Assembly (NCBI GenBank): GCA_001824435.1
Contig: MHXH01000018.1
Coordinates: 1,458 to 65,457, forward strand
DNA: 64,000 nt
Direction of reading: 5' to 3'
Origin: Parcubacteria group bacterium RIFCSPLOWO2_01_FULL_48_18
GTDB lineage: Bacteria > Patescibacteriota > Minisyncoccia > UBA6257 > WO2-01-48-18
Part shown: positions 9,906-49,300 of the stretch, piece by piece
Layout: the number at the start of each line of letters is the position of its first letter
Numbering within the stretch: the stretch's first letter is position 1
The notes under the pieces: model-generated
Databases searched by the model: none
The model's input: the letters and a program-made list of their open reading frames with translations, nothing else
Told to the model about the DNA's origin: nothing
Program-made: the position numbers and the translations under genes

Positions 9906-10086
9906 AATTTTACGCCCGACGAATCCGTCCGCCAAAAACAGTACAGTATTGAAGTCATTATAATAAATCCGTGTAGAATCGCAAAACAGAGGACCTGTGG
10001 ATAAGTAGAAACATTGCTTGGGTTTTTCTTTGATACGTTTTTGATGATTTATAAAACCGCATTCTAAGACTCCCAAGTTCTTCAAG

Positions 10087-13579: not shown

Positions 13580-13665
13580 GCCGAGGTGGTGGAATGGCAG
13601 ACACGCAGGACTCAAAATCCTGTGCTCGCAAGGGCATGAGGGTTCGACTCCCTCCCTCGGCACCA
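13580..13665 (+). tRNA. tRNA-Leu (anticodon CAA), type II with long variable arm, CCA encoded
   Basis: Hand-folded: acceptor GCCGAGG/CCTCGGC, anticodon loop CTCAAAA, T-arm GAGGG-TTCGACT-CCCTC, 3' ACCA. Confidence 0.85.
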
Positions 13666-13790
13666 GACAGAAAAACATCGGCTCGAACCATATTTTACGG
13701 AATCGGGAATTTCTTTTTGCCCCGAAAACTCCATACGATTTGGTCGCCGAGCGAAGCGAGGCGACATCTGAATCTTTGACATTTCCAACA

Positions 13791-13878
13791 TGGTGCCCGG
13801 GGTGGGAGTCGAACCCACAAGCCCTGTTAGGGGCCGAGGATTTTAAGTCCTCTGCGTAAACCATTCCGCCACCCGGGC
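13791..13878 (-). tRNA. tRNA-Leu (anticodon TAA), type II, CCA encoded
   Basis: Reverse complement gives GCCCGGGTGGCGGAATGG...GAGGA-CTTAAAA-TCCTC...GGGTTCGACTCCCACCCCGGGCACCA. Confidence 0.85.
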
Positions 13879-13993
13879 ATTAAACTAAAATCTAGAATTT
13901 AAAATCCGAAAAAAAGTTCGCGGAGGCCACGGCGACAATTGCACTTTCGTATAACGGTTTTGTTCCCTATTTGTCCAAAATTGAAGAACAATT

Positions 13994-14053
13994 TTGGTTA
14001 CAAACAGCAATCCCGCTCAAAAATTGGTTACAAACAGCAATCCCGCTCAAAAA
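13994..14053. repeat. Perfect tandem direct repeat, 2 x 30 bp (TTGGTTACAAACAGCAATCCCGCTCAAAAA), immediately 3' of tRNA-Cys
   Basis: Exact duplication at 13994-14023 and 14024-14053. Confidence 0.9.
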
Positions 14054-14061
14054 TTTGACCG

Positions 14062-14133
14062 AGGCCGGGATGGGAATCGAACCCACGTATAAGAGTTTTG
14101 CAGACTCTCGCCTTACCACTTGGCTACCCGGCC
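14062..14133 (-). tRNA. tRNA-Cys (anticodon GCA)
   Basis: Reverse complement GGCCGGGTAGCCAAGTGGTAAGGCGAGAGT-CTGCAAA-ACTCT...GTGGGTTCGATTCCCATCCCGGCCT; discriminator U, no encoded CCA. Confidence 0.8.
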
Positions 14134-16667: not shown

Positions 16668-17018
16668 TTATTTTCCCCCGATGATTCTGCGAAGCAATGA
16701 GAGCGTAGAATTTTCCGTGATGAGCGGATTTTCTTTAAGTTGTCCGTTTTCAAACTTGATTTCGCGGTCATTCAACATTACGGTATAGTCCGTCACTCTT
16801 CCAAGCGGGTGCTGCCGGTCAATCTCGGCGATAAGATCGGAGAGCGTAGCGCCTCGCGGCACCGAAATTCTAACATGGGATCCATGGATGGTAACATCCA
16901 CCTCAATGGTGTCGGAGGGCGGTGCGCCTCCCGGTCTCGTCCGTTCTTGCTCGCTCATACATGACTCCTGCTTTGGATTTTTCCGAGGTTCCTTAATCAG
17001 TATAAACGTTTGTTTCAA
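16668..17018 (-). CDS. Ubiquitin-like beta-grasp protein ending ...LSLLRRIIGG-K, probably processed to a C-terminal Gly-Gly. An alternative start at 16958 gives 96 aa.
   Basis: C-terminus RRIIGGK resembles ubiquitin LRLRGG plus one extra residue; about 75-aa beta-grasp-sized core; directly downstream of, and overlapping, the E1-like gene. Confidence 0.6.
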   Translation of the reverse strand: MKQTFILIKEPRKNPKQESCMSEQERTRPGGAPPSDTIEVDVTIHGSHVRISVPRGATLSDLIAEIDRQHPLGRVTDYTVMLNDREIKFENGQLKENPLITENSTLSLLRRIIGGK

Positions 17019-17628
17019 TGGTTGGCAAGTGTTCCATATTCACAGCTATTTCCCACAACTCGCTTCGAGGAATTCTTGAGTTGGAAAAAAACGCCAGCGC
17101 ATTGGAAATTGCGGCCGCGACTACCCAGAGAGTAGGAATCGTTTCTTGATTCGCGCAGGGAGCCGGAACCCCTTCTTCATCGGCATGAAGCGTTCTTTCG
17201 TAGCGCTCGACCAAATCCGGATTGCGAGGGTCAAGAACGTAGACAAGCGCGACGCCTTCCCCGGTTCTTGCATCGATATAGAGAGGGATATTGGCGCGGT
17301 ATTTGCAGGCTTCAAAAACGGCTCTTCGCGCAGCCATGGAATCAACGAGCGTAACGACGATACCGTCAAATTCGTGAGCCGCATCTATTTTTTTGAACTC
17401 TGCTTCTACAGAAGACGTTTCCAGTTCATTGAGTATCTTCTGCAATACCGCCACCTTAGGATAGCCCACGTCGTCCAAGCGGTACAACTGGTTTAAAGCG
17501 TTACGGGGCTCGACGATATCGTGATCAAATACGGTAATTCGCCAATGGAAGGCGCCGGCCATTTTTGAAAGAAGAAACGTCGTGAAGCTTCCGAGGCTTC
17601 CCGCCCCCACGATGTTTATCGAGAACAT
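16993..17628 (-). CDS. E1-like adenylyltransferase (ThiF/MoeB/HesA superfamily)
   Basis: Rossmann GAGSLGS loop and the conserved VFDHDIVEPRNALNQ block (ThiF D.D.VE.SNLNRQ); 211 aa; 1-nt overlap with the JAB gene. Confidence 0.8.
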   Translation of the reverse strand: MFSINIVGAGSLGSFTTFLLSKMAGAFHWRITVFDHDIVEPRNALNQLYRLDDVGYPKVAVLQKILNELETSSVEAEFKKIDAAHEFDGIVVTLVDSMAARRAVFEACKYRANIPLYIDARTGEGVALVYVLDPRNPDLVERYERTLHADEEGVPAPCANQETIPTLWVVAAAISNALAFFSNSRIPRSELWEIAVNMEHLPTIETNVYTD

Positions 17629-18236
17629 TATTCGAAAATCCCGTCTAAGATGTAATCGAAGAGTTTTTCGAAGGGATCATAGACAATGTTCTGTTCGATA
17701 ACCGATTGGATGTGATTTTCTCGCTCGCGCATAAGATGCAGTATGTCTCTTTTTGTGGCTGGATCTGTAAACGCTAGTCCTTCGAACAAAAACGGCGGCT
17801 GCCTCACGGGCTTGAAAACGTCAAGGCGCAGATTCATAGATCCGCGCTTATTCAAGACCAGGCTCATCCACCATTCGTTTAGGGGAATGCTCGACCAGCT
17901 TTCAATGGTTTCATTGTCGGTCTTGCTGAAGCGGGATTCAAAGTATACATGGCTATGCCACCACAGCCGATATTTGTTGATGAGCGGACCTCGGCCTTCA
18001 CGCATCATTTCCTGCGTCCACTTCCCATGCGCCACGGGATCAAACTCCGTTCTGGAATACGAACAAACCTGTCTGAATATGACCGGTTCTCCCGTAATAG
18101 TATAGACGTTTCCGGTTTTCTCTACGAAACCGAGGCCGGATACTTCTGTGGGACAAAGGTGTACGGCGAGGAGCAGGTCTGCGAGCGTGAGAGGATTAAT
18201 GCAAGCTTGCGGTACATCATTATGTTCGCGGTTCAT
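17628..18236 (-). CDS. JAB/MPN+ (JAMM) metalloprotease, candidate Ubl-processing or deconjugating enzyme
   Basis: Complete JAMM motif: E31 in TEVSGLGF, then H94-S-H96-x7-S104-x2-D107 (WWHSHVYFESRFSKTD). Confidence 0.8.
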   Translation of the reverse strand: MNREHNDVPQACINPLTLADLLLAVHLCPTEVSGLGFVEKTGNVYTITGEPVIFRQVCSYSRTEFDPVAHGKWTQEMMREGRGPLINKYRLWWHSHVYFESRFSKTDNETIESWSSIPLNEWWMSLVLNKRGSMNLRLDVFKPVRQPPFLFEGLAFTDPATKRDILHLMRERENHIQSVIEQNIVYDPFEKLFDYILDGIFE

Positions 18237-19486
18237 TGCCGCCTCCTTCGTTCATCGAGCTTTCCCGCGCGTAAAAGCTCAATCACCGCATGCAAATATT
18301 CTACAAAGGACGCGCGAGCATGAAGTTTGGAAAGCTCCTTCAGTGTGTGTGTATCAAGTATGAAATAACCGTTTGGGTCTACCTTTAGCGAGAGAGGGTG
18401 ATCGGACGGGATACCCCTAAGTTTTGGCAATGCATCGGATTTAATTTCGAGTTCAAGCGAAAGATTCCGGAAAGAAAAATTAATACAGAGAGCTGTTTCA
18501 TCGCTTTGCGGCGCATATTCTTGCCGGATCATGTACGCGCCCGCGCCAATGAAGGCCTCAATCTGCTCGTTAACATGATATTCCAAATTTGATGCACGCA
18601 TACGGTACCGCGCTAAAATTTTCTCTGCGCCCTTCATCTGATTCCGGAGATCTAAAACCCTGCTCAAATATTTTGAGAATTCTTCCTCAGCTTCTTTAAG
18701 AGCCTGGCTATTCAGTCTGTTAGCCCGTATAAGCTTGGCTTTGTGCAACAAAGCGGCATAGGCGCGTTTTGCCATCGCGCGTTCGTCGGGCGATCGGTAA
18801 CCAAACTCGAAAATAGGATCATACTGTTGCGGAGTTTCTTTTTTTGACGGCTCACGGAGAGGGACAGGATTCGCTTCGTCCCAGCGCAAAAATGAAAGCA
18901 GAAGATGCACAAGCGGGGCAATCTTGAAATCCGCAATGAGTTTAGAGATATCTTGGTTTAACGGACTTCCAAAACAAACAGAATATCCGGTTGCGCCGGC
19001 ATGCGGATGGCTGTGGGTGCCGCGATATTCGCCGGGAAGAAAGATTATACTGTCCTTAGTAAGATTTTCTTCGAGCAAACGTATGACGATATGAAATTGC
19101 CCGATGTCGTATTCGGTTTGTTGCGTTTTGCCCTCTATTTGCAGCCGAACAACCTGCATGATCCGCTTGGTGCATATACGCAAGTGGCCCTGATGTTCAT
19201 CAACCGAAATGAGTCGTACGCCCTCCATGGCCAAGATCTTTTCAAAATCATCGTCGAGGGTCGCGGCGCTTTCCCCCTCGCGCTTCAACTGTTCAAGGCT
19301 ATCCTGGAGTTCGGCAAGTTCAAGTGCCGCCCCATAACATTCGTCTTCCTCCTTGCTTAAAGCTTCTTTAAGGGCCCTAAGCCGCTCGGAGCCTCTTCTA
19401 AGTCGCTCTTGGTAATACGCACGGAGAAAAATCCGGAAGGCTTTCGTAAATGCGGCCTTCTCTTCGTTTCCCATCGCGAATTCCAC
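18233..19486 (-). CDS. Putative E2-like (UBC-fold) conjugating enzyme with a coiled-coil N-terminus and a roughly 200-aa C-terminal extension
   Basis: GEYRGTHSHPHAGATGYSVCFGSPL contains an HPH-x8-Cys arrangement like the UBC HPN...C active site; overlaps the JAB gene by 4 bp (ATGA). Assignment is by motif only. Confidence 0.4.
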   Translation of the reverse strand: MEFAMGNEEKAAFTKAFRIFLRAYYQERLRRGSERLRALKEALSKEEDECYGAALELAELQDSLEQLKREGESAATLDDDFEKILAMEGVRLISVDEHQGHLRICTKRIMQVVRLQIEGKTQQTEYDIGQFHIVIRLLEENLTKDSIIFLPGEYRGTHSHPHAGATGYSVCFGSPLNQDISKLIADFKIAPLVHLLLSFLRWDEANPVPLREPSKKETPQQYDPIFEFGYRSPDERAMAKRAYAALLHKAKLIRANRLNSQALKEAEEEFSKYLSRVLDLRNQMKGAEKILARYRMRASNLEYHVNEQIEAFIGAGAYMIRQEYAPQSDETALCINFSFRNLSLELEIKSDALPKLRGIPSDHPLSLKVDPNGYFILDTHTLKELSKLHARASFVEYLHAVIELLRAGKLDERRRRQ

Positions 19487-19570
19487 CCTTCCGTACTGAT
19501 ATTTTTAAAAAGCTGTTGTTAGTATAGGATAAATTTTAACAATAGGCAATTTTTTGAAAGCGGAGAAACA

Positions 19571-19598
19571 AATAAGACGCGCCGTCGCGTCTTATTTA
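19571..19598 (-). terminator. Hairpin (TAAGACGCG-ccgt-CGCGTCTTA) with flanking T-run, between the AAA gene and the E2-like gene; possible attenuator or terminator
   Basis: Perfect 9-bp GC-rich stem followed by ATTTGTTT on the minus strand. Confidence 0.4.
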
Positions 19599-19616
19599 CA
19601 GACAATTTTTTGAATA

Positions 19617-21506
19617 CTATACGATTCTTGTCGATTGAGGTTGCGAATTATGTTTACGAAGCTGCTTGGCGAGTTTTTTCCATTTTCCTTCAGGAATGAA
19701 TCGTTCGGAGTTGCAGTAGCTCAAGGCGAGTTCAGTCATGGTTCCGTACCGCAAGAAATCCTGGCCCGGAATGAAATCCTGAAACGCCCTCCGCAGATGT
19801 TCTGCGCCGAGCACCGCCCCTTCGTTGCTCGCGAGCGTATACGCTTTACGTACAATAGTTTCAATCTGCGCGCCGGTCAAACCAACCTCGTCCGACTCTT
19901 CTGTTCCTCGTTCATGCACGTCGGGATCGCATTCGATGAGACCCCGTGACGAATCGTAGTGCCGGTGAGAGAACCAGCCAAACTCCTGAAAGAACGAACC
20001 GTCTATGCTCCAGTTAAACGGAAATTTCTGTAACGCCGCCTGTATTTTCATTTTTTCGAGAATGGCGGGAAGTATTTCCCCTCTTTCCTCCGAAGAGGGA
20101 GGAAAGAACGGAATCCGTTCGTCAAATCGTCCTTCGCGAAGCAGGGCAGGATCGAGAAGATTGGGCATGTTTGAGGCAGCGAGCCACAGAACTCGTCCGC
20201 GGAGATTCGTGTCCGACATAAACTGGAAAAGGCGCGCCTGCATACGATTGTTGACGCCCGTATTGTCAATCATTGTGGACCGACTCTGATATTCCTGATC
20301 GATTTCGTCGACAAAGACTACGACAGGAGCTTGTGCCGCTATAAGTTCCAACGCGAAGTCAAGATTCCGTTCTGATTTACCCACCCACATTTCACGAATA
20401 TTTTTGAGCTTCACAAACGGAAGCCCGGCCTCGTGGGCAATCGCCTCGGCAAAAGCCGTTTTTCCGGTTCCCGGTGCGCCCAAAAGCAGAATGCCCATCG
20501 GTACGGCAAGAAAATCTCCCCGCTTGATGGCCTGCACCACTTCAAAAATATATTCTTTGTGAACCTTGAGTCCGCCGATGGCCTCCACGCCCCAAAGCGG
20601 CTGCATTATTTCAAGAAGTCCGCCCGATTGTTCTTCGATGAATTTCTTTTTCATCCGAAAAACCGTTTCGGCAGCGAGAGGAGCTTTTCTTAAGCCCGCT
20701 TCTTTGATCATGTTGCCGATTGCGTTTCGCGACATGCCCGCCGAAAGATAAGCGAGTTGCTTGGTGTCGATACTTTCTTTGTGCGGAGGGTACGATTTAA
20801 CGTGGAACGCGATTGTTTTTTCGCGCGCCGCGAGATCGGGGAAATAGAGCTTGAGAGGAGCTATGCCGTTTGTTTCCGATCGAAGCTGCGGAGCAATAAG
20901 TCCCAGGCTTTCTCCGACCAAGATTACAATATTACCGGCTTCCGAAATTTTTTTGTTCTTTGCCCATACGAGAAACGTTACCAGGGCATTCCGGTCGATT
21001 TCTTGGTTAGTAGCCGAGTCGCTGGGAGCGAGCGTTTCTATGTAATCGAGAATGGCGGCAAAAAAAGGTATTTTGAGTTCATCCTGCTCTTCAGGACAAC
21101 TCTTTACAGCTTCTCCGTTGCCTGTTTTTCTTGAGGCATAAGTAATTTCGAGCATTTCTCCGAAAAGCTGGAGAGCATATGCCGGATTGAATCGATTCCG
21201 CCTGAATTGTTCCAAAACTACATATTCGCCGGTCATCTGATTTTTTTCAGGATGGAGCATAACGAGAAATTCAAAGAAATCTTTTTCCATCTTGTGGTTC
21301 AGAAATTTAATCCCCGTTCCACGGTTAAAAAACGCAATAAAACGCGCTTTACCCGCCACGGTCCCCGAAACAAGATGTTCGTTCAGTTGTTCAATGCACC
21401 CGCCACGCCCATTTAAGACGTCATCGGCCACGTTCAAATAAAGAAGGAAGACGTGGCTCGATCGGGATTGCCATTTATACCTTAAGGCCTTTTCCCAGCT
21501 TTTCAC
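19617..21506 (-). CDS. Classical-clade AAA ATPase: roughly 330-aa N-terminal domain, one AAA module, C-terminal extension
   Basis: Walker A GAPGTGKT, Walker B VVFVDEID, SRH-like LLDPALLREGRFDERI; 4-bp overlap with the upstream ClpP-like gene. Confidence 0.85.
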   Translation of the reverse strand: MKSWEKALRYKWQSRSSHVFLLYLNVADDVLNGRGGCIEQLNEHLVSGTVAGKARFIAFFNRGTGIKFLNHKMEKDFFEFLVMLHPEKNQMTGEYVVLEQFRRNRFNPAYALQLFGEMLEITYASRKTGNGEAVKSCPEEQDELKIPFFAAILDYIETLAPSDSATNQEIDRNALVTFLVWAKNKKISEAGNIVILVGESLGLIAPQLRSETNGIAPLKLYFPDLAAREKTIAFHVKSYPPHKESIDTKQLAYLSAGMSRNAIGNMIKEAGLRKAPLAAETVFRMKKKFIEEQSGGLLEIMQPLWGVEAIGGLKVHKEYIFEVVQAIKRGDFLAVPMGILLLGAPGTGKTAFAEAIAHEAGLPFVKLKNIREMWVGKSERNLDFALELIAAQAPVVVFVDEIDQEYQSRSTMIDNTGVNNRMQARLFQFMSDTNLRGRVLWLAASNMPNLLDPALLREGRFDERIPFFPPSSEERGEILPAILEKMKIQAALQKFPFNWSIDGSFFQEFGWFSHRHYDSSRGLIECDPDVHERGTEESDEVGLTGAQIETIVRKAYTLASNEGAVLGAEHLRRAFQDFIPGQDFLRYGTMTELALSYCNSERFIPEGKWKKLAKQLRKHNSQPQSTRIV

Positions 21507-22267
21507 GCCCTACCTCCTTCCTGCTTTTCCGACAATGCTTCCGTTGGCGCGTTAAAAATCTCCATAATCTTTCCATCTCCCGGCGGAATTACCGCATCAA
21601 TAATGCCAGCTGCTTGCGCCTCGTACGCAGAAAGGTATGTTTCGTTTTTCAGGAATCTTTTGACGAGCTTTATTCTGCCTTCGTCGTTCTCAAGCATGGT
21701 TTTATCCCTCGGCGCGATTTGTTCTTGCTCCAGGTGATACTCCGGAATTTTAGTCCGCTGCGCCAAGAGAAGATACATTTGACGAGCCAGCCGGTCGGTG
21801 TACTCCTTGGCTCGCTCAAAATCCTCGCCCTGTCCTCCGATAACCCGCGATTCCGCGTGGAGGTGGACGATTGAACGGTCAAGCGCATAGCGCTTTCCTC
21901 TGGTGCCGGAAGCAAGAATGATGGACGCCATACTCATGGAAGAACCGACAACGAGAATTTCTACATCAATTCCCATGGCTTGAACGTGTTCGATTGCCTG
22001 GACAATCATGAGGCCTGCATCAATATCGCCGCCGCGGTTATTAATAACCATCTTGATCGGGTCTCGGCTTTCACCCGCAAGATAAAAAAGCGAGGCGAAG
22101 ATTTCTTCGGCAAGGAATGGAATGCTATCCGCCACAATGATGTCAACATTAATACTGGAATGGATCCTTCCGAAAAGCGTAATAATTCTTGAATTGCTGC
22201 CATAGATCATCCAAGGGGTTACGAGCGGCCCGGTGGGTGTCGGCGAAAACGGTCGTCGTAAGGTCAT
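21503..22267 (-). CDS. ClpP-family serine peptidase (divergent), catalytic triad apparently intact
   Basis: Aligns by eye to ClpP: INNRGGDIDAGLMIVQAIE (INSPGGVITAGMAIYDTMQ), VVGSSMSMASIILASGTRGKRYALDRSIVHLH ([34 protein letters not shown]), GIIDAVI; Ser, His and Asp are all present. Confidence 0.75.
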   Translation of the reverse strand: MTLRRPFSPTPTGPLVTPWMIYGSNSRIITLFGRIHSSINVDIIVADSIPFLAEEIFASLFYLAGESRDPIKMVINNRGGDIDAGLMIVQAIEHVQAMGIDVEILVVGSSMSMASIILASGTRGKRYALDRSIVHLHAESRVIGGQGEDFERAKEYTDRLARQMYLLLAQRTKIPEYHLEQEQIAPRDKTMLENDEGRIKLVKRFLKNETYLSAYEAQAAGIIDAVIPPGDGKIMEIFNAPTEALSEKQEGGRA

Positions 22268-27385: not shown

Positions 27386-27456
27386 GCTTGTAGCTTTTTA
27401 ACTTGTAGCTTCTTAGATAATCCTACAAGCTACAAGCTACAAGCTAACAGCTAACC
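27386..27456. promoter_or_regulatory. Array of CTTGTAGC / GCTACAAG motifs (two direct, three or more inverted) directly upstream of the solute-binding protein gene
   Basis: agCTTGTAGCt, aaCTTGTAGCtt, then cCTACAAGCTACAAGCTACAAGCTAACAGCTAACc. Confidence 0.4.
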
Positions 27457-27457
27457 T

Positions 27458-28792
27458 GTGCATTTCGATCGCCGCCAACTCATTCTCATAGGCTTTGTCG
27501 CGCTCATCATTGTCGGCGCGGTGATTACGTATCTTTTCGGCCGCAAAGATCCGATGAATCAACCGCGGGGAGAAGAGACTAGCATTGTTATGTGGGGCGT
27601 ATACGATCCCATCAGTTTTTACGATGCGGCTGCCGCGAACTATTATGCGCAGAAAAACGCCGACGCCAAAATCATATACTACCAGATGGACCCCGAAACG
27701 TATGAAGAGGACCTGCTCAACGCGCTGGCCGCCGGAGAAGGACCGGATATTTTCATGATCCACAACACGTGGATCCCTAAGCACTTCAACAAGATCTGGT
27801 ACGCCAATGAATCCATGGTTACGGCCGCAACAGCAGAACCGCTGTTCCCCGAAGTCGTCATGGGCGATTTTGCGCCCCAGGGATCTGTCTATGCGCTTCC
27901 TCTATCCATTGATACGCTCGCCCTCTATTACAACAAGGATCTATTTGATCAGGCGGGAATCGCGCTCCCCCCGAAAACGTGGAGCGAGTTCGAAGCGGCG
28001 GCAGATAAACTAAAGAAGATTGACCGTGTTACCGGCAAAGTGATCCGCGCCGGCGCCGCGCTTGGCGGCTCGGCCAAAAGCATCAGCCGCGCTGCGGATA
28101 TTGTATCTCTCTTAATGCTCCAGCGCAGGGCACAGATGGTAAGCGACGGCTTTGATCGCGCAACATTCGGCGCGGAAACCGGAGACCTGTTCAGCGGCAG
28201 TAATCCCGGCCTCGAGGCCCTGGAATTTTATACGAAATTCGCCAATCCGTATGCCCTGCAGTTTACGTGGTCCGACGACTTTTCTACTGCAATCGATGCG
28301 TTTTCCGAAGGAAGCGCGGCGATGATGCTTGGCTACCTCAGCGAGCAGCCGAACATACGCGAGAAAAATCCGTTTCTCAATTTCGGCATCGCGCCGATGC
28401 TCCAACAAAACCCCGATGCGCCGGTTAACTACGCAAGCTACTGGGGATATACCGTACGGGCAAATTCGGAGAACTACCATGCGGCGTGGGATTTTATTCT
28501 TTTCCTGACCACGCAAGAAGATCAGGCAAGGGTTTACATGGACGCGAGCGGCAAACCGCCGGCGCTGCGCGCGCTCATCGGCGAAAAAATAAACGATTCC
28601 CGTCTCGGCGCATTCGCGCGCCAATCGCTGACTGCGCGTTCATGGCTTCAACCGGACAGCCGCGCGGTTGATGCGATTTTTTCCGATATGATACAATCAG
28701 TAATAACAGGAAGGTTCGGCCTCGACGAAGCGCTTTCCAATGCCGAACGGGAAGTAACGGCGCTTATCGAACGGTCAAGGTTTATGAAGTAA
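27458..28792 (+). CDS. Extracellular solute-binding protein (ABC transporter SBP family 1-like), membrane-anchored; no adjacent permease or ATPase
   Basis: N-terminal TM helix, then a sugar-SBP-like fold (IVMWGVYDP...DIFMIHNTWIPKH...YALPLSIDTLALYYNKDLF..PPKTWSEF). Confidence 0.65.
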   Translation: MHFDRRQLILIGFVALIIVGAVITYLFGRKDPMNQPRGEETSIVMWGVYDPISFYDAAAANYYAQKNADAKIIYYQMDPETYEEDLLNALAAGEGPDIFMIHNTWIPKHFNKIWYANESMVTAATAEPLFPEVVMGDFAPQGSVYALPLSIDTLALYYNKDLFDQAGIALPPKTWSEFEAAADKLKKIDRVTGKVIRAGAALGGSAKSISRAADIVSLLMLQRRAQMVSDGFDRATFGAETGDLFSGSNPGLEALEFYTKFANPYALQFTWSDDFSTAIDAFSEGSAAMMLGYLSEQPNIREKNPFLNFGIAPMLQQNPDAPVNYASYWGYTVRANSENYHAAWDFILFLTTQEDQARVYMDASGKPPALRALIGEKINDSRLGAFARQSLTARSWLQPDSRAVDAIFSDMIQSVITGRFGLDEALSNAEREVTALIERSRFMK

Positions 28793-28809: not shown

Positions 28810-29259
28810 ATGATTTTTTCATACTTTTCATCTTTGTCATTACGCTCTTTGCGTTATCCGGCTGTAGTTGTTATCGCGGCTGTGGTGCTTGCCGTATTTT
28901 TGTCGGCTCCATCCTATGCAGTAGCAGTGTCCATCGTACCCCAGACATGCGCTACAGCCAGTAGTAGCGAAATTCTTGCCAAATGCGGCGTTTGCGCGCT
29001 TGCCCAAGCGTTTAAAAACGCGACGGACATTATGATCACCATTTCCGGTCCCTTGGCAGTAATGTTTCTTTTGTATGCCGCAGTACTTTTTTTGACATCA
29101 GGCGGATCCCAAGAAAGAGTGAGCCAAGCGAAAAAAGTGGCAACGTCAGCAGCAGTAGGGCTTGTGATTGTTCTTCTGTCCTGGGTTATTTTAAATACCA
29201 TTATCAATGTTATTTTCGGCGCAAAACTATCCGCTCCATGGTCTAGCTTTACGTGTTAA
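28810..29259 (+). CDS. TrbC/VirB2-like pilin paralog 1 (149 aa)
   Basis: Signal/TM segment, then two hydrophobic helices separated by a short polar loop (LAVMFLLYAAVLFLTSGGSQERVSQAKKVATSAAVGLVIVLLSWVI), the topology of conjugative T4SS pilins. Confidence 0.45.
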   Translation: MIFSYFSSLSLRSLRYPAVVVIAAVVLAVFLSAPSYAVAVSIVPQTCATASSSEILAKCGVCALAQAFKNATDIMITISGPLAVMFLLYAAVLFLTSGGSQERVSQAKKVATSAAVGLVIVLLSWVILNTIINVIFGAKLSAPWSSFTC

Positions 29260-29266
29260 TTAATCT

Positions 29267-29632
29267 TTGCAAAAGAACCAGCGGCCAAAAATTATAAAAA
29301 ATGGGGGAGGCGCCATATTTCTTGTCGCACTGTTCCTTTTATGGGTTACCACTACATCAGCAGTAACCACTATATCAGTCACCAATCCTTTAGGAGGCAC
29401 CTGCAACGATCTTGTATGCATACTGGATAAGGTCGCCGGAGCGCTCTGGTGGATCGGTTCTCCGCTCGCGGTCATGATGGTCATCTGGGGCGCGATACAG
29501 ATTCTTACTTCAGCCGGCAATGCAGAGCGGGTCAAAACCGGCAAGCACACAATCCTCTATGCGGTGGTGGGCATTATCTTTCTTCTGCTTGCGGGCGGCT
29601 TAAACCTTATTATTCAAAGCCTTTTTGCATGA
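29267..29632 (+). CDS. TrbC/VirB2-like pilin paralog 2 (121 aa)
   Basis: LWWIGSPLAVMMVIWGAIQILTSAGNAERVKTGKHTILYAVVGIIFLLLAGGLNLIIQSL. Confidence 0.5.
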   Translation: MQKNQRPKIIKNGGGAIFLVALFLLWVTTTSAVTTISVTNPLGGTCNDLVCILDKVAGALWWIGSPLAVMMVIWGAIQILTSAGNAERVKTGKHTILYAVVGIIFLLLAGGLNLIIQSLFA

Positions 29633-29952
29633 AACTCGTCATACCATCACTTGTACTGGTTATCTTCTTCGCAGTATCAACGCATTCCGCGTTCGCGGCG
29701 CTTTCAAACCCGCTTGACCCCTGTAAAGAGATCACCTGCATTTTGGACAAATTCGCAGCCGGATTGTGGTGGATCGGCTCTCCACTCGCAGTCATCTTTG
29801 TCCTCTGGGGCGCGATTCAGATTCTCACCGCAGGCGGCGACGTAGAACGATTAAAAAAGGGCAAAAGTACCATTACCTATGCGATCATAGGGCTTATCAT
29901 CCTTTTTGCAGGCGCTGGCGTAAACCTTATTATCCAGAGTCTTTTGAAATGA
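29629..29952 (+). CDS. TrbC/VirB2-like pilin paralog 3 (107 aa). The start ATG overlaps the stop of paralog 2 (ATGA).
   Basis: MKLVIPSLVLVIFFAVSTHSAFA signal peptide, then LWWIGSPLAVIFVLWGAIQILTAGGDVERLKKGKSTITYAIIGLIILFAGAGVNLIIQSL; the ORF-track N-terminal extension is rejected. Confidence 0.5.
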   Translation: MKLVIPSLVLVIFFAVSTHSAFAALSNPLDPCKEITCILDKFAAGLWWIGSPLAVIFVLWGAIQILTAGGDVERLKKGKSTITYAIIGLIILFAGAGVNLIIQSLLK

Positions 29953-30122
29953 GGCGGCTGGTTATCCCCAACCCTTGCAATGTGCCGGATCCTATGGTAT
30001 GATACCGATAGGCAAAGAGAGGCTTGTCCATTCCACGGCCAAACCCCCTGCCTTAGCAAAGCAATCAAAGAGTTTAAAGGTCGCCTTCAAAGTCCCAAAT
30101 CTAATTTTGGGAAAAACGATAT

Positions 30123-30500
30123 ATGAGCATTGTAATTAATAAGAAAGCGTTTGTTGCCGCAGTCGCGCTTTTTGCGGTCATGTTCGCGGTACTGCCGTTT
30201 TTGACGTTTGCAGGTACCCCGGGAGGACCTACGCAGCCCCCGAAGAACATTACCAGCATTAGCAACTTCGTCACGGTGCTGCAGACTGTTTTGGGCTGGA
30301 TGTTCACGATCTTTCTGATTCTCGCGGTCGTAATGATCATCTGGGCAGCGTTTCTGTACTTGACTGCCGGCGGCGATGAAGAAAAAACCAAGAAGGCAAA
30401 GCAGGTATTGATTTACGCAGTTGTCGCGATCGTCGTTGCATTGGTTGCGGCAGGCGTGCCGAACATTGTCGGCTCGCTCATCGGTTCTCCGCTTCCATAA
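30123..30500 (+). CDS. TrbC/VirB2-like pilin paralog 4 (125 aa)
   Basis: Signal peptide, GPTQPPKNITSI, then two hydrophobic helices; near-identical to paralog 6. Confidence 0.5.
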   Translation: MSIVINKKAFVAAVALFAVMFAVLPFLTFAGTPGGPTQPPKNITSISNFVTVLQTVLGWMFTIFLILAVVMIIWAAFLYLTAGGDEEKTKKAKQVLIYAVVAIVVALVAAGVPNIVGSLIGSPLP

Positions 30501-30522
30501 CGGCAAAAAGTGCCTCTATGAT

Positions 30523-30552
30523 AGTTCTGGGCGCTTGCGAGCGCCCAGAACT
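30523..30552 (+). terminator. Perfect 12-bp hairpin (AGTTCTGGGCGC-ttgcga-GCGCCCAGAACT) after pilin paralog 4
   Basis: Perfect GC-rich stem; the downstream T-tract is weak. Confidence 0.35.
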
Positions 30553-30573
30553 GCGTAAGGCATTCATTCTGGA

Positions 30574-30966
30574 ATGGTTATTGGAAAAAATAAAAAAGGG
30601 GTCGCCAAAGCAAACATGATAATGACAGCTCTATTGCTGATGTTGGTTGTATTGCCTTCTTTTATTTTCGCCCAAACTACCCCCGCAAAGCCGCCGAGAT
30701 CGATCACGAGTATTGGTCAATTCGTTACCGCTCTCTGCACCGTCATGAATTGGCTATACACTTTTTTTCTGGTATTGTCGGTTCTCATGATCCTGTGGGC
30801 CGCGTTTCTATACGTCACGAGCGCCGGAAGCGATGAAAAAATCAAACAGGCAAAACAAACCATCGTCTATGCGGTAATTGCTATCATCGTTGCCGCGATT
30901 GCCGCAGGGCTCCCGAACATTATCGAAACCCTTCTTTCTGCGCCGGCTTCTAAAATACCCTGTTAA
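30574..30966 (+). CDS. TrbC/VirB2-like pilin paralog 5 (130 aa)
   Basis: Same architecture: PRSITSIGQFVTALCTVMNWLYTFFLVLSVLMILWAAFLYVTSAGSDEKIKQAKQTIVYAVIAIIVAAIAAGLPNII. Confidence 0.5.
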   Translation: MVIGKNKKGVAKANMIMTALLLMLVVLPSFIFAQTTPAKPPRSITSIGQFVTALCTVMNWLYTFFLVLSVLMILWAAFLYVTSAGSDEKIKQAKQTIVYAVIAIIVAAIAAGLPNIIETLLSAPASKIPC

Positions 30967-31045
30967 TACAAAAAGACATTGTCTAACAGTTAGAGGATTA
31001 CATTACAAAAAGGTCGTAGAAATTCAGTTATATACGTATTTATTT

Positions 31046-31420
31046 ATGAGCATTGCCATGCGTCCAAAGACTATTATGATTGCGATTGCGTTATTGATGG
31101 CTGCGCTATTGCCGCTTGTCAGTTTTGCCGCAGCGCCGCCCGGAGGACCGACCCAACCGCCGAAAAACATCACAAGTATCGGTACATTAGTGACCGTGCT
31201 TCAAACCGTACTCGGCTGGATGTTCACGATCTTTCTGATTCTCGCGGTCGTCATGATCATCTGGGCAGCGTTTATTTATCTGACTGCCGGGGGAGAAGAA
31301 GAAAAACTGGGCAAAGCCAAATCAATCCTTATTTACGCGGTGGTAGCCGTCGTAGTGGCATTAGTTGCCGCAGGACTCCCGAACATTGTCGGCTCTTTAA
31401 TCGGATCGCCCCTTCCATAA
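31046..31420 (+). CDS. TrbC/VirB2-like pilin paralog 6 (124 aa). The ORF-track start 30878 is rejected; ATG at 31046 gives a signal peptide.
   Basis: MSIAMRPKTIMIAIALLMAALLPLVSFAAAPPGGPTQPPKNITSI...; a 60-bp segment is near-identical to paralog 4 with one mismatch. Confidence 0.5.
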   Translation: MSIAMRPKTIMIAIALLMAALLPLVSFAAAPPGGPTQPPKNITSIGTLVTVLQTVLGWMFTIFLILAVVMIIWAAFIYLTAGGEEEKLGKAKSILIYAVVAVVVALVAAGLPNIVGSLIGSPLP

Positions 31421-31452
31421 TGGTTTTTCGGATGAAGAATATCATATAACCA

Positions 31453-31486
31453 AATTCCGCCCCTCTGGGGCGGAATTTGTATTTTA
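31453..31486 (+). terminator. Rho-independent terminator after the pilin array
   Basis: AAATTCCGCCCC-tct-GGGGCGGAATTT, perfect 12-bp stem, then GTATTTT. Confidence 0.65.
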
Positions 31487-31534: not shown

Positions 31535-31616
31535 GGGCGGGTGGCGGAATCGGCAGACGCGCAGGGTTTAGGACCCTGTGGGGAAACCCGTGAGAGTTCA
31601 AATCTCTCCCCGCCCA
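31535..31616 (+). tRNA. tRNA-Leu (anticodon TAG), type II
   Basis: Acceptor GGGCGGG/CCCGCCC, anticodon stem CAGGG/CCCTG with loop TTTAGGA, variable arm TGGGGAAACCCGT, T-arm GAGAG-TTCAAAT-CTCTC; discriminator A, no encoded CCA. Confidence 0.8.
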
Positions 31617-32049
31617 CACTTCGACTCGCTTCGCTCGCTCAGTGTAAACCCATTAGAGCGAGGCGAAGTGCCCTGGGCCCATCGGGTCTGAGATCCTCAG
31701 GCCATTCGGCTCAGAGAGCCTCAGGCTCGATGAGGTCGAATGACTTGTCGAAAGGCTTTTAATTTTCGATTAGTGACCCAGAGCGTGTCCGGAAACCCCC
31801 TTTTCTACTGCAATCTCTTTCGTTCGGCTGCGGCTTCGTCGCTCCCCTGCCTATCAGCAGACAGACCTGCCTGCCGACAGGCAGGTCCTCGGCGTATACT
31901 CCGTATACAACCTCGTCGTCGCTCCTTACCTCGCTCGAACGGAGAAGAGATTTCGCTACGAAAAAGGGTTCCGGACATACTCTAGTGAGTCCACCGGTTT
32001 CAACGCACTTGCAAAAAAGAACTTTTCGTGGTATAATTGTAAACATACG

Positions 32050-34467: not shown

Positions 34468-35352
34468 CTATTCGTAAAGTAGCCGCCGCAGAATTCCTGC
34501 GATATACCGAGCCCGTATAGCCGCAATCGAGAACGTCCTGTTATATATTTTTATCTCGTCGATGATACCGTTGAAGTAGCCCGAAGTGGTTCGGGCGCCA
34601 ATCGAAATATCTTCGCCTTGCCGAAGGGTTCCGGTAAGCGTTGCTCGTTCCATCACTCTGCCGTTTCGATAAAGCACCATGTTTCCTACTTTGTTGATAG
34701 CGCCGACAAAATAGTACCATTGATTAGCTTTCAGATACTTTTCAGTATCAACCTGAAAACCGGTTCCCCCGGTGTTGAATACCTTAAACGCGGTTTGATC
34801 ACCCCACCCCTCATAGCCAAATTCCATTTTATATCCGGAAGGCGCATCCCACCATACAAAGTAATACCACTGGCTTGGCTCTTCCCCGTAGTCGCGCAGC
34901 GGCTTTACCCACACCTCAACAGTGAGTTCGTCGGTCGAGGCCGAAAGGCTTGTTGATGTGCCAACAGCCACCCGATCGTCAACGCCGTCAAATTGCAGAG
35001 CCCAATTTCCGCCTCCCCTCTTAATTACTTTATGCGGCGTATCGCCTGTCCACGTTGCACCGTAGATGGTGCCGTGGTTTTTATTTCCCGATGTGTCGGA
35101 CGTCGAAGTTCCAGCACCCTCATGAAAACCCCAATACGCAACAGGTTCTCCCGCTACATTGATGGCATTTCTAATGTCATGGCTCATTTGAAACCCTTTA
35201 ACTATAGTTGATTGCTGTTGAGCCTCATTGAAGGCACGGCGAAATTCCGGATATCCGACTGCGGCGATGATAAGAATAATAGCCATCGTTATGATGAGCT
35301 CGAGCACGCTGAATCCTTGCCGCCTTTCGCCATTAAAATTCTTTCTCCTCAT
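34468..35352 (-). CDS. Type IV pilin/pseudopilin-like protein with a LamG (concanavalin-like) C-terminal domain
   Basis: Prepilin-type N-terminus RRQGFSVLELIITMAIILIIAAV (G/FxxxE class III signal); LamG-like block DGVDDRVAVGTS...LTVEVWVKP. Confidence 0.65.
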   Translation of the reverse strand: MRRKNFNGERRQGFSVLELIITMAIILIIAAVGYPEFRRAFNEAQQQSTIVKGFQMSHDIRNAINVAGEPVAYWGFHEGAGTSTSDTSGNKNHGTIYGATWTGDTPHKVIKRGGGNWALQFDGVDDRVAVGTSTSLSASTDELTVEVWVKPLRDYGEEPSQWYYFVWWDAPSGYKMEFGYEGWGDQTAFKVFNTGGTGFQVDTEKYLKANQWYYFVGAINKVGNMVLYRNGRVMERATLTGTLRQGEDISIGARTTSGYFNGIIDEIKIYNRTFSIAAIRARYIAGILRRLLYE

Positions 35353-36411: not shown

Positions 36412-37797
36412 CTAAGGTTTTGTCAACGTTTCGCCGTACAGCGGCACACCGATGCCTACGATGCCCGCTCCAACCTGATACGGACTGGAAAGGGTTCCAA
36501 AAAGCACATCATTTCCATCTTCAATGCTCAATCGAAACGTACTCCCTTTTTGGGGAAAACCTCCGAGATTCGCCCTGACATAAAATGTTTTTGACGTTCC
36601 CCTCGGGACGGTTGCCGCGACATCTGAAAAATCAAGCCTCCCTCCGTTTGAAAATGGCAAGGTAATAGTAAGCGCCACAGGTTTATTGATTGCCGCATCA
36701 TAGAGCGTGAAGTCGTCGGCAATTGCTGCGGTAGGCGAAGCGAAAACAGTAAAACTCATTGAGTGCGCGACGCCGTCAAATATAACGTCGTCTGATGCGT
36801 CCGCCGTAATGCTGAAACGCATTACCTCTGTCGTAGTAGCAAGAAGAGTTTCGCCGGCAGTCACTTTTGCACAACCGCTTGCGCCTATTTCGCACGCCGA
36901 GAATATGAGCGGGGGTGGGGGCGCCGCAGTTGTAAATTGCCCCTCGGCAAATGACACATTCCGCGATGGGTCTTCGGACTGGGCCTCAAAATAATACAAC
37001 GTATACGATGAAAGTCCGCTCAGTGCCGAACAGTGACTCGTGGCATATTGCAAGCCGCCGCAGCGATCAGTCGAAATTCCCGGATAATACCCATAGGACG
37101 TTCCAAAAAGTACTCCAGTAGTGGCGGGTTCGTCGGTAAACCACTTAATGCGCGCGCTGGAGGGTGTGATATTTTCAGTCTTTACTCCGGAGATGGAAGG
37201 CGGGGTGGTATCAGATATTGTCGGAACCGGGGGGGTGGAAGAAGAAACCGCAGAAGAAGACTGCGTTGGCGTTGGCGCGGATGGCGCCTGCGGCAAGGAT
37301 GGACCGGTTAACCCATCGGCTGAGACAGGCGGGACGGCAGCTCCCAACGCATTAATCTTTTCCTGCAAAAACGCAATTTGTTTGAGGAGTTCTTGCAGCT
37401 GTAGAGACAGAACAACAGATGTAGGGTCAGGGGGAGGTGGTCCGGCGACCGGCGGCGGAGGCGGCGGTTTTTCCATTAGGGGCTGCGTGGGTAATTGCTT
37501 AAGAAGGATTTCATTCGCCTTGCCTCGCGAAAGAGGACCGAAAAATCCGGAAACCGGACTAATGCCGTACGCATTCTGGAATTTCTTCACGGCCGCGAAC
37601 GTGAGCGTAAGAAAGTTGCCGGTTACCGGACCGTTATAAAACCCCTGTTTTGTCAGAAATTCCTGCAGTCGAACGACGTCCGCATTATTTTCCATGCCGA
37701 AACTTAAATTTCGATCAAACGCCCGGGGCGCTGCCGCATAAACAAACGAATACCCGACGCAAAACACTATAATTAAACAAAGGGCTATTTTTTTCAT
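36412..37797 (-). CDS. Secreted protein: signal peptide, PG_binding_1 domain, Pro-rich linker, fibronectin type III-like domain, beta-rich C-terminus
   Basis: MKKIALCLIIVFCVGYSFVYAAAP; DVVRLQEFLTKQGFYNGPVTGNFLTLTFAAVKKFQ; PPPPPPVAGPPPP; IKWFTDEPATTGVLFGTSYGYY. Confidence 0.65.
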   Translation of the reverse strand: MKKIALCLIIVFCVGYSFVYAAAPRAFDRNLSFGMENNADVVRLQEFLTKQGFYNGPVTGNFLTLTFAAVKKFQNAYGISPVSGFFGPLSRGKANEILLKQLPTQPLMEKPPPPPPVAGPPPPDPTSVVLSLQLQELLKQIAFLQEKINALGAAVPPVSADGLTGPSLPQAPSAPTPTQSSSAVSSSTPPVPTISDTTPPSISGVKTENITPSSARIKWFTDEPATTGVLFGTSYGYYPGISTDRCGGLQYATSHCSALSGLSSYTLYYFEAQSEDPSRNVSFAEGQFTTAAPPPPLIFSACEIGASGCAKVTAGETLLATTTEVMRFSITADASDDVIFDGVAHSMSFTVFASPTAAIADDFTLYDAAINKPVALTITLPFSNGGRLDFSDVAATVPRGTSKTFYVRANLGGFPQKGSTFRLSIEDGNDVLFGTLSSPYQVGAGIVGIGVPLYGETLTKP

Positions 37798-46328: not shown

Positions 46329-49300
46329 TTGTCAATGAAAAAATACAATTTTAGAACAATCGAATCGTTCTGGCAGAAAGAATGGCGCACGGAACAAATC
46401 CATGAGCCGAACTTCTCGCGACCGCAAAAACCCTTTCGGCAAGCTCTTCAGCCGCGAGCTCAGGGCCGAGTGGCTCGGGGCAGGCCTTTTTATAATCTCA
46501 TGATGTTCCCGTATCCGTCTGCCGAAGGACTCCATGTCGGCAATATGTACGCATTCACCGGCTCGGACATTTACGGCAGGTTTAAACGCATGCAAGGATA
46601 TGACGTATTCGAACCGATCGGGCTTGACGGCTTTGGCATCCACAGCGAAAACTACGCGCTCAAAACCAACCAGCATCCGATGAAACTTGCGGAAAAATCA
46701 GAGAAGAATTTTTACCGCCAGCTCCGGATGCTCGGAAACAGTTTTGCATGGAACGAAACGCTCGAAACCTACGATCCGGAATATTACAAGTGGACCCAAT
46801 GGATTTTAACGGAAATGTTCAAACGCGGGCTCATGTACCGGAAGAAGGCAGCGGTGAATTGGTGCCCATCGTGCAAAACCGTGCTTGCGGATGAACAAGT
46901 TTTGCAGAAATCTCAAGTCTCAAGTCCCAAATCTCAAAAAAACTCCAAACCCCAAATTCCAAATTCTGAACAAGACAAAGAAAATATTCCATATTCCAAA
47001 TTCCATATTCCAAATTCCAAAGTAGGGGCGTGCGAGAGATGCGAGACGCCGGTCGTGAAAAAAGAACTTGAACAGTGGTTTTTGAAAATTACGGATTATG
47101 CCGAACGGCTCTTGAGCGATCTGGAGAAAATCGATTGGTCTGAAAAAGTAAAAATCGCGCAGAGGAATTGGATCGGAAAATCTGAAGGAGCGGAGATTGA
47201 TTTTGAAATCCGGACGAAAGAAAAACCTAATTTCGTCCTACTTCACGGCTACACCGGGTCGCCAAAGCATAACTTCTTTCCTTGGCTTAAAAAAGAACTG
47301 GAGAAACGGGGATACAAGGTTCAGTCTCCAACCTTGCCGCATAGCGACGCATCCCGCGCAAACGAGAATGACGATATGGATGCGTTTCGGAAACAGGTGG
47401 AGTTAAACAGAAATACCGTACTTCTCGGCCATAGTTTGGGAACAATTGTGGCAATGAAGGCTCTTGAAAAGTTGGATTACCCGATCCGCAAACTTGCACT
47501 CGTTGGCGGATTTCTTGAGCCGCGCTTCCGCGACCACGCCCGATCCTTCACCAAAACGTTCAATTGGCGCTTTAACTTCGAAAAGATTAGGACGAACGCC
47601 GGAAAAATCACGATATTACATGACCCTAACGACCGAGCTATCCCATACGATCAGGGCGTGAAGCTCCACGACGCGCTCGGCGGCGAACTTATCGAGCCAA
47701 TACCGAAAAAATCACACTTCTGCGGAAAGGAAGAACCGGAAATTTTAAAATATGCTCTTGATCGTCTTACCGTCTTCACCACGCGACCGGACACGATTTT
47801 TGGCGCAACCTATATGGTGCTGGCGCCGGAACATCCGCTAGTCAAGAATCTGGAATCTGGAATTTTGAATTTGGAAAGAGTTAAAGATTATATCCGAAAA
47901 ACAAAAAACAAATCAGAGGAAGAACGAATTGCCGATGGGCGCGAAAAGACCGGTGTTGAACTAAAAGGAATAAAAGCAATAAATCCCGCAAACGGCGAAG
48001 AAATTCCGGTGTGGGTCGCGGATTATGTATTGAATTCGGTGGGCACAGGAGCAATCATGGCCGTGCCAGCGCACGATGAGCGAGATTTTGAGTTTGCGAA
48101 GAAATACAAACTGCCCATCATAGAGGTCGTTGAGCCCTTATTTGTAAAAACCGATGACATAGACGGAGTTCGCCCCGGATTGCCTCTTAAGGAGAGAAGC
48201 GCAATCGTTGCGGTTGTGAAGCACTGGTCCGAGGACAAATATCTTTGTCTAAAATGGAAAAAAACGGATTGGCGGGGATTTATTATTGGCGGCATCGAGG
48301 AAGACGAGGATATGGCTGAAGCCGCGGCTCGCGAGATTCGCGAAGAAACCGGTTATGCATCGGCAAGGTTTATCAGGAACTTAGGCGGTATTGTCCACGC
48401 GCGGTTTTATCATGCGGTGAAGAACGAAAATCGATGGGCCCGTTTTCACGGCTTATATTTTGAGTTAGCTGACGGAACAAGAGAGAAAATCTCCGACGAG
48501 GAAAAACAGATTCACGACGTGGTTTGGGTAGACAGAAAAGAAGTTGACCATTTCCTTGATTGGGTTACGGATATGCGTTTGATATGGCATAGGGTCTCAA
48601 GCCCGGACGACTTTCCCGGCCGGAACGACATTCACGAATCAAGCCGGGTAAACAAACAAGGTGTTTTAGCGTGCTCGGGGGAATTTAACGGAATGAACTC
48701 AGGGGAGGCGAAATGGAAGATCACCAATTTTGTAGGCGGCAAGCGGGGGAATCGGTATCGTCTCCGCGACTGGTTAATATCGCGCCAGCGCTACTGGGGG
48801 CCGCCAATACCGCTAATTTTTTGCGAAAACTGTGCAAACAAAATTAAGGAAGCCCCTCGACAAGCTCGGGGCAAATTCACCAAAGGTGAATTTGAAAACC
48901 CCGGATGGATTCCGGTGCCGGAAAAAGACTTACCCGTAAAACTTCCGTATGTAAAAGGTTTTCGACCCAGGGGAAAGGGGCAGTCGCCGCTTGCTTCGGT
49001 AAAATCTTTTTATGAGGTAAACTGCCCACGCTGCGGCAGTAGAGCGCGCGGAGAAACTGATGTTTCTGACACCTTTCTTGATTCTTCTTGGTATTACTTC
49101 GGCTACCTCGCAAAAGAAAATTCTAAATTCGAAATTCTAAATTCCAAATTCCGGGGCCGAGCAAAACAATGGCTGCCGGTTGACATGTATATCGGCGGGG
49201 CAGAGCATTCGGTTTTACATCTCCTTTACACACGTTTTATTACGAAAGTATTCCACGATTGGAAACTCATTAATTTCAACGAACCGTTTAAAAGATTCCG

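Follow-up and report, generated by a model that had tools for sequence, protein, structure and literature searches.

What does a tandem array of small membrane proteins build in a patescibacterial cell when no secretion machinery is encoded beside it? This question is raised by six genes (g1 to g6) at positions 28810-31420 of a 64,000-nucleotide stretch from Parcubacteria group bacterium RIFCSPLOWO2_01_FULL_48_18 (assembly GCA_001824435.1, contig MHXH01000018.1, positions 1,458 to 65,457 of the forward strand), the whole of which is referred to here as the window. The initial annotation, made from the letters of the window alone, read the six genes as paralogous pilins of the TrbC/VirB2 type known from conjugative type IV secretion systems (T4SSs). 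The analysis described here places them in a wider context: the array is an expanded copy of a Parcubacteria/Paceibacteria operon that consists of gyrA, a solute-binding protein gene and three pilin types, designated A, B and C. A tandem VirB2-like array away from virB4 in a patescibacterium is of an already known kind, and one more such array adds little; the part that deserves follow-up is the conserved cassette of binding protein and A-B-C pilins.

Six VirB2-like membrane hairpins

Open reading frames (ORFs) confirm six tandem genes for proteins of 107-149 amino acids (aa), all on the forward strand, and the same six genes were called independently on identical public metagenome contigs. 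The profile check supports their assignment to VirB2-like pilins, as all six proteins pass the gathering score of 26.6 bits of the Pfam family PF18895 (T4SS_pilin), with scores of 30.4-45.4 bits. Specifically, g1 (28810-29259; 149 aa) reaches 37.5 bits, g2 (29267-29632; 121 aa, with a TTG start) 39.0 bits, g3 (29629-29952; 107 aa) 43.1 bits, g4 (30123-30500; 125 aa) 45.4 bits, g5 (30574-30966; 130 aa) 30.4 bits and g6 (31046-31420; 124 aa) 43.0 bits. The TrbC/VirB2 profile PF04956, with a gathering score of 27.9 bits, is passed by g3 (29.5 bits) and narrowly missed by g4 and g5 (25.2 bits each); g1, g2 and g6 have no match to it at E <= 1. Against NCBIfam NF045849, g4 scores 38 bits with the cut-off at 40, and g1 scores 20 bits. 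The family to which these proteins belong is large: 33 of 34 homologues of g4 in a large protein collection are annotated with PF18895, the remaining one carrying no annotation, and the family profile retrieves 70,486 representatives of 50%-identity clusters at E <= 0.001.

Hydropathy divides each of the six proteins into three hydrophobic segments, an N-terminal signal or transmembrane segment and two more, and the loop between the last two reads T-[AS]-[GA]-G-x-x-E-[RK], followed by Lys-rich residues. The motif is present in all six proteins and conserved across 39 aligned sequences. The layout first proposed for the paralogs, a signal segment and two hydrophobic helices separated by a charged loop, is thus found throughout the array, whereas the exact G/S-G form given for the loop motif does not hold, with g2 and g5 carrying A-G. 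An AlphaFold2 model of g4, computed from the 39-sequence alignment (mean predicted local distance difference test score, pLDDT, 71, and about 80 in the hairpin), places a signal-type helix at residues 7-28, a disordered stretch at 29-45, a second helix at 46-81, a loop at 82-85 and a third helix at 86-120. The class III signal peptide profile N_methyl (PF07963) matches none of the six proteins, and within the window it occurs only in a separate LamG pseudopilin at 34468-35352. These comparisons support the reading of the six as predicted Sec-exported two-helix membrane hairpins of the patescibacterial VirB2-like pilin family PF18895.

A conserved cassette downstream of gyrA

The gene that precedes the array was described at the outset as encoding a membrane-anchored solute-binding protein, and this description stands. 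It lies on the forward strand at 27458-28792, encodes 444 aa with a single N-terminal hydrophobic membrane anchor, and belongs to family 1, the sugar-type binding proteins (SBP_bac_8, 1.8e-31; SBP_bac_1, 1.1e-28; 101-110 bits). A profile of the protein aligns over residues 60-437 to 5ci5 and to sugar/maltose binders, which are its nearest solved relatives. Neither an ABC permease nor an ABC ATPase was found by Pfam in the window or among the recurrent neighbours of related loci.

This gene is the first member of the conserved cassette. An alignment of the binding protein was compared with a genome collection, which yielded at least 505 relatives, and the best 80 of these were inspected with 10 kb of flanking sequence on either side. 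All but 2 of the 80 loci are assigned to Patescibacteria, among them Lipton-, Harrison-, Yanofsky-, Wolfe-, Jorgensen-, Colwell-, Azam- and Portnoybacteria and the Parcubacteria group, and their arrays comprise 1-7 genes. The closest relative of the binding protein in the collection is only 48% identical. The arrangement is nearly constant: a same-strand ORF matching the pilin profile lies 3' of the binding-protein gene in 77 of the 80 loci, and the other 3 have less than 1 kb of downstream sequence. The gap between the two genes has a median of 8 nt and measures at most 60 nt in 65 loci, with an overlap in 14 pairs. Upstream, gyrA is found on the same strand in 58 of the 62 loci with enough flank. 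Three relatives reached independently of the binding protein, through homologues of g4, share the order S1 protein, MBL-fold protein, gyrA, binding protein and pilin array. A complete Paceibacteria genome, OY970216.1 (804,691 bp), has the cassette at locus L071. Synteny ends 3' of the array, where the commonest neighbours are PNPase, an XerC/D-like recombinase, VanW, PrsW, FtsH, leucyl-tRNA synthetase (LeuRS) and Band-7.

These loci can be set beside the published survey of Quinonero-Coronel et al. 2025 (PMC12102498), in which PF04956 and PF18895 were run against 3,035 Patescibacteria genomes. A text search of that paper returned no mention of the binding protein, the gyrA linkage or ordered pilin types, and a literature search for an association of binding protein and pilins found none, which is not proof of absence.

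Three pilin types in a fixed order

The usual array is shorter than that of the window. Three genes are present in 32 of the 58 loci with at least 3 kb of downstream sequence, and six or seven genes in only four loci. Profiles for positions 1, 2 and 3 were built from half of the three-gene arrays and tested on the held-out half, where 43 of 48 classifications were correct. Applied to the window, the position-1 profile assigns g1 to type A (90.5 bits versus 54.0 and 36.9 for the other two), the position-2 profile assigns g2 and g3 to type B (89.9 and 78.5 bits), and the position-3 profile assigns g4, g5 and g6 to type C (124.4, 108.7 and 116.8 bits). Pairwise identities follow the same division, with 55% between g2 and g3, 77% between g4 and g6, 52% between g4 and g5, 51% between g5 and g6, and 26-37% between g1 and the rest.

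Over all loci, the type string ABC occurs 34 times, ABCC 7 times, ABCCC 3 times and ABBC twice, and the window is the sole ABBCCC. Distant lineages classify poorly, with strings such as ABAAA, so the evidence for a three-type scheme covers only part of the group. Judged from these profiles, the ancestral array is A-B-C and that of the window its A-B-B-C-C-C expansion.

Gene spacing and transcription signals

Within the array, g2 and g3 are translationally coupled, as the initial annotation had noted, through an ATGA overlap that can be read directly at 29629-29632. Strong terminators were held to bound the array on both sides, and one of them is present: an intrinsic terminator 3' of g6 (31451-31479, forward strand) has a 13-bp stem with 8 G-C pairs followed by TATTTTA (z = -4.95), and tRNA-Leu(tag) lies 3' of it at 31535-31617. 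No such boundary exists at the 5' end, where g1 begins 17 nt past the binding-protein gene. Folding reveals no hairpin in these 17 nt and none of note 3' of gyrA. An internal hairpin follows g4 on the forward strand (core 30523-30552); it has no U tail, and the fold of 30498-30575 reaches -40.4 kcal/mol (z = -7.06; 0 of 200 shuffles equally stable). This element may be an attenuator or may stabilise the mRNA.

The interval that separates gyrA from the binding-protein gene holds a near-palindrome (27402-27418 / 27420-27436) as well as a tandem CTACAAGCTACAAG repeat (27423-27450); this segment (27402-27450) could serve as an operator or as an element of the promoter region. Two independent assemblies break at the same point close to the 3' end of g3, at window positions 29920-29924: contig L005 carries foreign sequence and a run of N there (L005:1845-1977), and contig L092 begins exactly at 29924. 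A 148-aa version of g3 on L005 was considered as a strain variant and rejected as a scaffolding artefact associated with the run of N, and a 116-aa version of g5 on contig L006 was likewise rejected, being another start-codon call on identical DNA.

Signs of recombination between type C copies

The type C genes carry traces of exchange. A 60-nt tract of g4 (30294-30353) matches g6 (31214-31273) at 59 of 60 nt and is identical in 19 of 20 codons, whereas outside this tract 54% of the codons for the same amino acid differ synonymously. Given this synonymous divergence alongside a protein identity that is still 77%, g4 and g6 are, as judged from their codons, old duplicates under purifying selection. 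The tract itself suggests a gene-conversion patch or a recombination hot spot.

In addition, L092, a 6.4 kb contig from another sample, carries a hybrid gene that follows g4 up to the tract and g6 beyond it, with the normal downstream genes directly after. L092:1-640 aligns to window positions 29924-30560 and 30850-31484, which places the crossover at 30294-30331 and amounts to a 920-bp deletion in which g5 is gone. Either a genuine unequal crossover or a chimeric assembly could account for the g4::g6 hybrid. Together, the conversion tract and the hybrid contig suggest recent recombination between paralogs. Otherwise the array hardly varies, as assemblies from several samples agree at 99.8-100% identity over 4.3 kb, which argues against rapid diversification. 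The window matches a 96.9 kb scaffold of the groundwater metagenome ANAN16-1_SAMN03842437 and contigs from other samples.

Cysteines, fusions and polyproteins

The type assignments are accompanied by characteristic cysteines, which occur in even numbers. The N-terminal region of g1 is longer than in the other proteins and carries three cysteines (47, 59 and 62), to which a C-terminal Cys 149 is added, and this 3+1 pattern is common to 17 of 39 type A relatives. Both type B proteins have a C-x4-C pair, which in g2 lies ahead of the first helix. Among type C relatives, 35 of 49 have no cysteine, as in g4, and 13 of 49 carry a single cysteine ahead of helix 1 and another at the C-terminal end, as in g5 (C55 and C130). 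After cleavage of the signal peptide, both ends of each hairpin are predicted to face outside, with the Lys/Arg-rich loop in the cytoplasm, and disulfides would join the outer ends of type A and type B proteins and of some members of type C; both predictions derive from the even cysteine counts and their placement. In TrbC/VirB2 proteins, the position of both ends on the outer face permits head-to-tail cyclisation, and the proposed disulfide tying would be a functional parallel to it.

Some relatives offer a second clue to function. In these, the first gene after the binding protein encodes a fusion of 510-1,202 aa in which an N-terminal PF18895 domain is joined to Ig-like domains (He_PIG, fn3, PKD) and an SLT lytic transglycosylase (L058:11240-13522, L063:11188-12720, L078:11338-13128, L083:6120-8069 and L087:9223-12831, among loci L012-L091). 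Lytic transglycosylase activity is the VirB1 activity of T4SSs, and the fusions are independent support for a link to T4SS-type envelope biology; they also suggest that type A carries accessory functions. Many of the top profile matches, moreover, are single polypeptides in which 2-17 hairpin units are fused through conserved linkers and internal signal peptides are absent, such as P0035 (606 aa, 7 units), P0048 (238 aa) and P0142 (1,775 aa, 17 units). Such fusions suggest that different hairpins stand side by side in one assembly.

Secretion machinery in the window and in related genomes

Pfam scans of all plausible ORFs across the 64 kb found no VirB4, VirB6 or VirD4, in agreement with the initial annotation. 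This is not unusual, because the cassette stands away from T4SS genes in every related locus inspected; the missing T4SS genes are a constant property of the cassette and not a peculiarity of the window. Eleven cassette-bearing genomes could be found by name in Table S1 of PMC12102498, and VirB4 is marked present in 8 of them, close to the phylum-wide rate of about 80% (2,474 virB4 genes in 3,035 genomes; PMC12102498). In most Paceibacteria, the T4SS machinery is encoded near dnaA (PMC12102498).

An orphan pilT and a LamG pseudopilin had also been pointed out in the vicinity. Both genes are there, as a PilT-like T2SSE ATPase (12330-13406) and an N_methyl and Laminin_G_3 pseudopilin on the reverse strand (34468-35352), each recognised by Pfam; what does not hold is their bearing on a VirB2-type filament. 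As candidate parts of the array system they were rejected, since they belong to the type IV pilus/type II secretion system family, which is unrelated to VirB2-type pilins.

What the array may build

Taken together, the data favour, with somewhat better than even confidence, a model in which the six proteins are subunits of a T4SS-derived surface structure whose machinery is encoded elsewhere in the genome, with distinct roles for the three types and a co-transcribed binding protein. In this model, a VirB4/VirB3/VirB6-type machine would draw on a membrane pool of hairpins to form a surface filament or conduit for host contact. Each of the three types would have a task of its own, with type C as the probable bulk subunit and type A as a probable initiator or tip subunit, given its fusion in some relatives to Ig-like and lytic-transglycosylase domains. 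The additional B and C genes would have arisen by lineage-specific duplication and would contribute variety, and the binding protein would probably bind a carbohydrate-like ligand at the same surface. In cultured Paceibacteria, the five signal-peptide genes of unknown function with the highest expression include genes for PF18895 proteins (PMC10936435), which fits a structural role.

Several observations weigh against this model. No VirB4/VirB3/VirB6 machinery was found among the recurrent neighbours of the related cassette loci (84 loci), and 3 of the 11 cassette-bearing genomes, all of them draft assemblies, are without detected VirB4. A profile search of the PDB with the pilin alignment returned nothing relevant and hence no sequence tie to solved VirB2 or TraA structures, and a Foldseek search with the g4 model retrieved generic helical hairpins only (best E = 1.7), a two-helix hairpin being too simple to discriminate. 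No PF18895 filament has been reported in any patescibacterium, with reviews mentioning only a potential for pili. The polyproteins are explained no less well by a bundle embedded in the membrane than by a polymerised filament, and the role assigned to the binding protein is purely inferential.

In a different explanation, the binding protein and the A/B/C hairpins form a T4SS-independent envelope module, for example a membrane bundle or channel that acts with the surface-anchored binding protein in the uptake or recognition of host carbohydrate, and the VirB2 homology reflects ancestry only. In favour of such a module, the binding-protein gene is strictly linked to the pilins, in many cases with translational coupling (77 of 80 loci, 14 overlaps), recurrent neighbours include no T4SS genes, ABC permeases or ATPases, and VirB4 was not detected in 3 of the 11 related genomes; in addition, polyproteins of 2-17 hairpins without internal signal peptides resemble polytopic membrane proteins. 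In Saccharimonadia, however, the PF18895 family sits within the T4SS cluster and is essential together with it, and the type A/SLT fusions recall the association of VirB1 with VirB2. The VirB4-less genomes are drafts, with 8 of 11 matching the phylum-wide rate, and gyrA is conserved as well (58 of 62), so that the linkage may partly be inherited synteny. On balance, we regard a T4SS-independent module as rather unlikely. An origin as small membrane proteins of an unrelated kind, for instance holins or bacteriocin immunity proteins, with pilin matches that stem from hydrophobic composition, is extremely improbable. The proteins are indeed short and hydrophobic and have weak sub-threshold matches to many unrelated membrane families, but only PF18895 and TrbC pass their thresholds, bar a marginal Srsx match of g1 (24.3 versus 24.1 bits), and the loop motif and cysteine pattern are common to thousands of relatives. 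The genes lie among gyrA, relA/spoT and a tRNA, in no phage or bacteriocin context. The Pfam scores and the lack of any PHROG match at E <= 0.01 for all six proteins largely refute such an origin.

It had also been proposed that the paralogs supply antigenic variation of a surface filament. Read in this way, they would be interchangeable variants of one major pilin, kept for antigenic variation or a wider host range, and host-strain adaptation has been put forward for such arrays (PMC12102498), for which the literature draws an analogy with the VirB2 arrays of Bartonella and Anaplasma. Duplicated B genes (55% identical) and C genes (51-77%), which take the array past its usual size of three, are compatible with this idea, as are the 60-nt conversion tract between g4 and g6 and the hybrid contig that lacks g5. 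However, the A-B-C order is kept across lineages whose binding proteins are only 37-48% identical, and the types can be separated by profile (43 of 48), which together argue for distinct, non-redundant roles. In addition, the array is nearly invariant between samples (99.8-100% over 4.3 kb), g4 and g6 are apparently old and under purifying selection, and no silent cassettes or invertible elements were found. Variation among equivalent pilins is thus a distinctly unlikely reason for the array; with three ancient types in conserved order, antigenic variation is at best secondary.

The near-constant linkage to the binding protein, the fixed order of types, the lytic fusions and the polyproteins constrain models of how the structure is built and used. 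Such a structure may be heteromeric and may stand in association with the cell wall, possibly with a link to a ligand. A bolder proposal is that the gyrA-linked binding protein and the A/B/C operon constitute a distinct and so far undescribed module of phylum scale in Parcubacteria/Paceibacteria, in which the binding protein physically joins a heteromeric VirB2-derived conduit or bundle and captures or recognises host carbohydrate. We put this forward tentatively and with more doubt than belief. If true, nutrient acquisition and not export would become the context of the patescibacterial T4SS, or of an offshoot that is independent of it. The patescibacterial T4SS is essential in the one species tested, has no relaxase and is suspected of taking up host material.

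Other features of the window

The remainder of the window holds several further loci. LeuRS (46329-50099, forward strand; 1,256 aa) contains, besides its editing domain, an inserted serine-hydrolase or alpha-beta-hydrolase domain (about aa 300-456) and a NUDIX domain (aa 634-743). On the reverse strand at 16993-22267, five genes in a row encode a ThiF/E1-like protein (with weak PADLOC E1-E2 matches), Prok-JAB, a 417-aa protein of no family, an AAA ATPase (PADLOC IetA, 79 bits) and a ClpP-like protease; they may form a ubiquitin-like conjugation or defence-type cluster. Three reverse-strand genes (1662-10172, 36412-37797 and 62008-63993) encode PG_binding_1 surface proteins, one of them a giant of 2,836 aa with CarboxypepD_reg and Big_5 domains, and cultured Paceibacteria express similar peptidoglycan-binding proteins at high levels (PMC10936435). 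At 50532-53200 on the reverse strand, a MoxR-type AAA ATPase with a bpMoxR domain adjoins a weakly matching VWA-domain protein, and unannotated membrane proteins lie near this locus at 54686-55387 and 55442-56839. A trio of tRNA genes (13580-14133), Leu-caa on the forward and Leu-taa and Cys-gca on the reverse strand, is found just 3' of the pilT-like gene.

Comparison with known systems

The closest counterparts of the array are other patescibacterial arrays. Of the 1,948 VirB4-positive assemblies in which PMC12102498 found VirB2-like pilins, no more than 1,135 have them close to virB4, and in about 40% they lie away from it; 441 VirB2 arrays of 2-11 genes were counted in 383 assemblies. These arrays resemble that of the window in being tandem PF18895/PF04956 genes that often lie away from virB4. 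They differ in that they are most abundant in Microgenomatia and Saccharimonadia, that the array map is drawn relative to virB4 and that identity within an array reaches at most 54%, compared with 77% between g4 and g6. In Southlakia epibionticum ML1, a six-gene PF18895 array (SEML1_0014-0019) is essential by transposon sequencing (Tn-seq; Wang et al. 2023, PMC10633639). This array, too, comprises six tandem PF18895 genes of similar sizes, some of which also match PF04956, in a monoderm patescibacterium and without relaxase context. It directly follows VirB6-like, PrgI and VirB4-like genes near dnaA, however, in a cluster without a binding protein, whereas gyrA and the binding protein take this place in the window.

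Beyond the phylum, the proteins of the array share with the TrbC/VirB2/TraA pilins of Gram-negative bacteria a signal peptide, two hydrophobic helices and a short basic loop, as well as the predicted location of both ends on the outer face, and g3 passes PF04956. Unlike them, they have no detectable similarity to the solved pilins and no adjacent VirB3-B11, they belong to a monoderm host, and paired cysteines instead of a cyclase may tie their ends. The Mbov_0395 family of pilin-like conjugal transfer proteins (NF045849), from Mycoplasma integrative and conjugative elements (ICEs), is likewise a small VirB2-like hairpin of a monoderm MPF-FATA-type system, to which g4 comes close; it is encoded by a single gene in an ICE transfer module, however, and the array scores lie under its cut-off. 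For the binding protein, the enterococcal PrgZ/TraC proteins offer a parallel. These family-5 binders of peptide pheromones are encoded beside T4SS-related genes without a permease of their own and feed the chromosomal Opp permease for signalling. The binding protein of the window likewise stands by T4SS-related genes without a permease, but it is of family 1 and sugar-type, and it is chromosomal.

Finally, tandem arrays of diverged VirB2 genes are also found in other host-dependent bacteria, namely Bartonella and Anaplasma phagocytophilum (cited in PMC12102498). The arrays of these bacteria have been read as variants of one pilin that serve immune evasion; here, by contrast, three pilin types are kept in order across great evolutionary distances, and only the extra B and C copies look recent.

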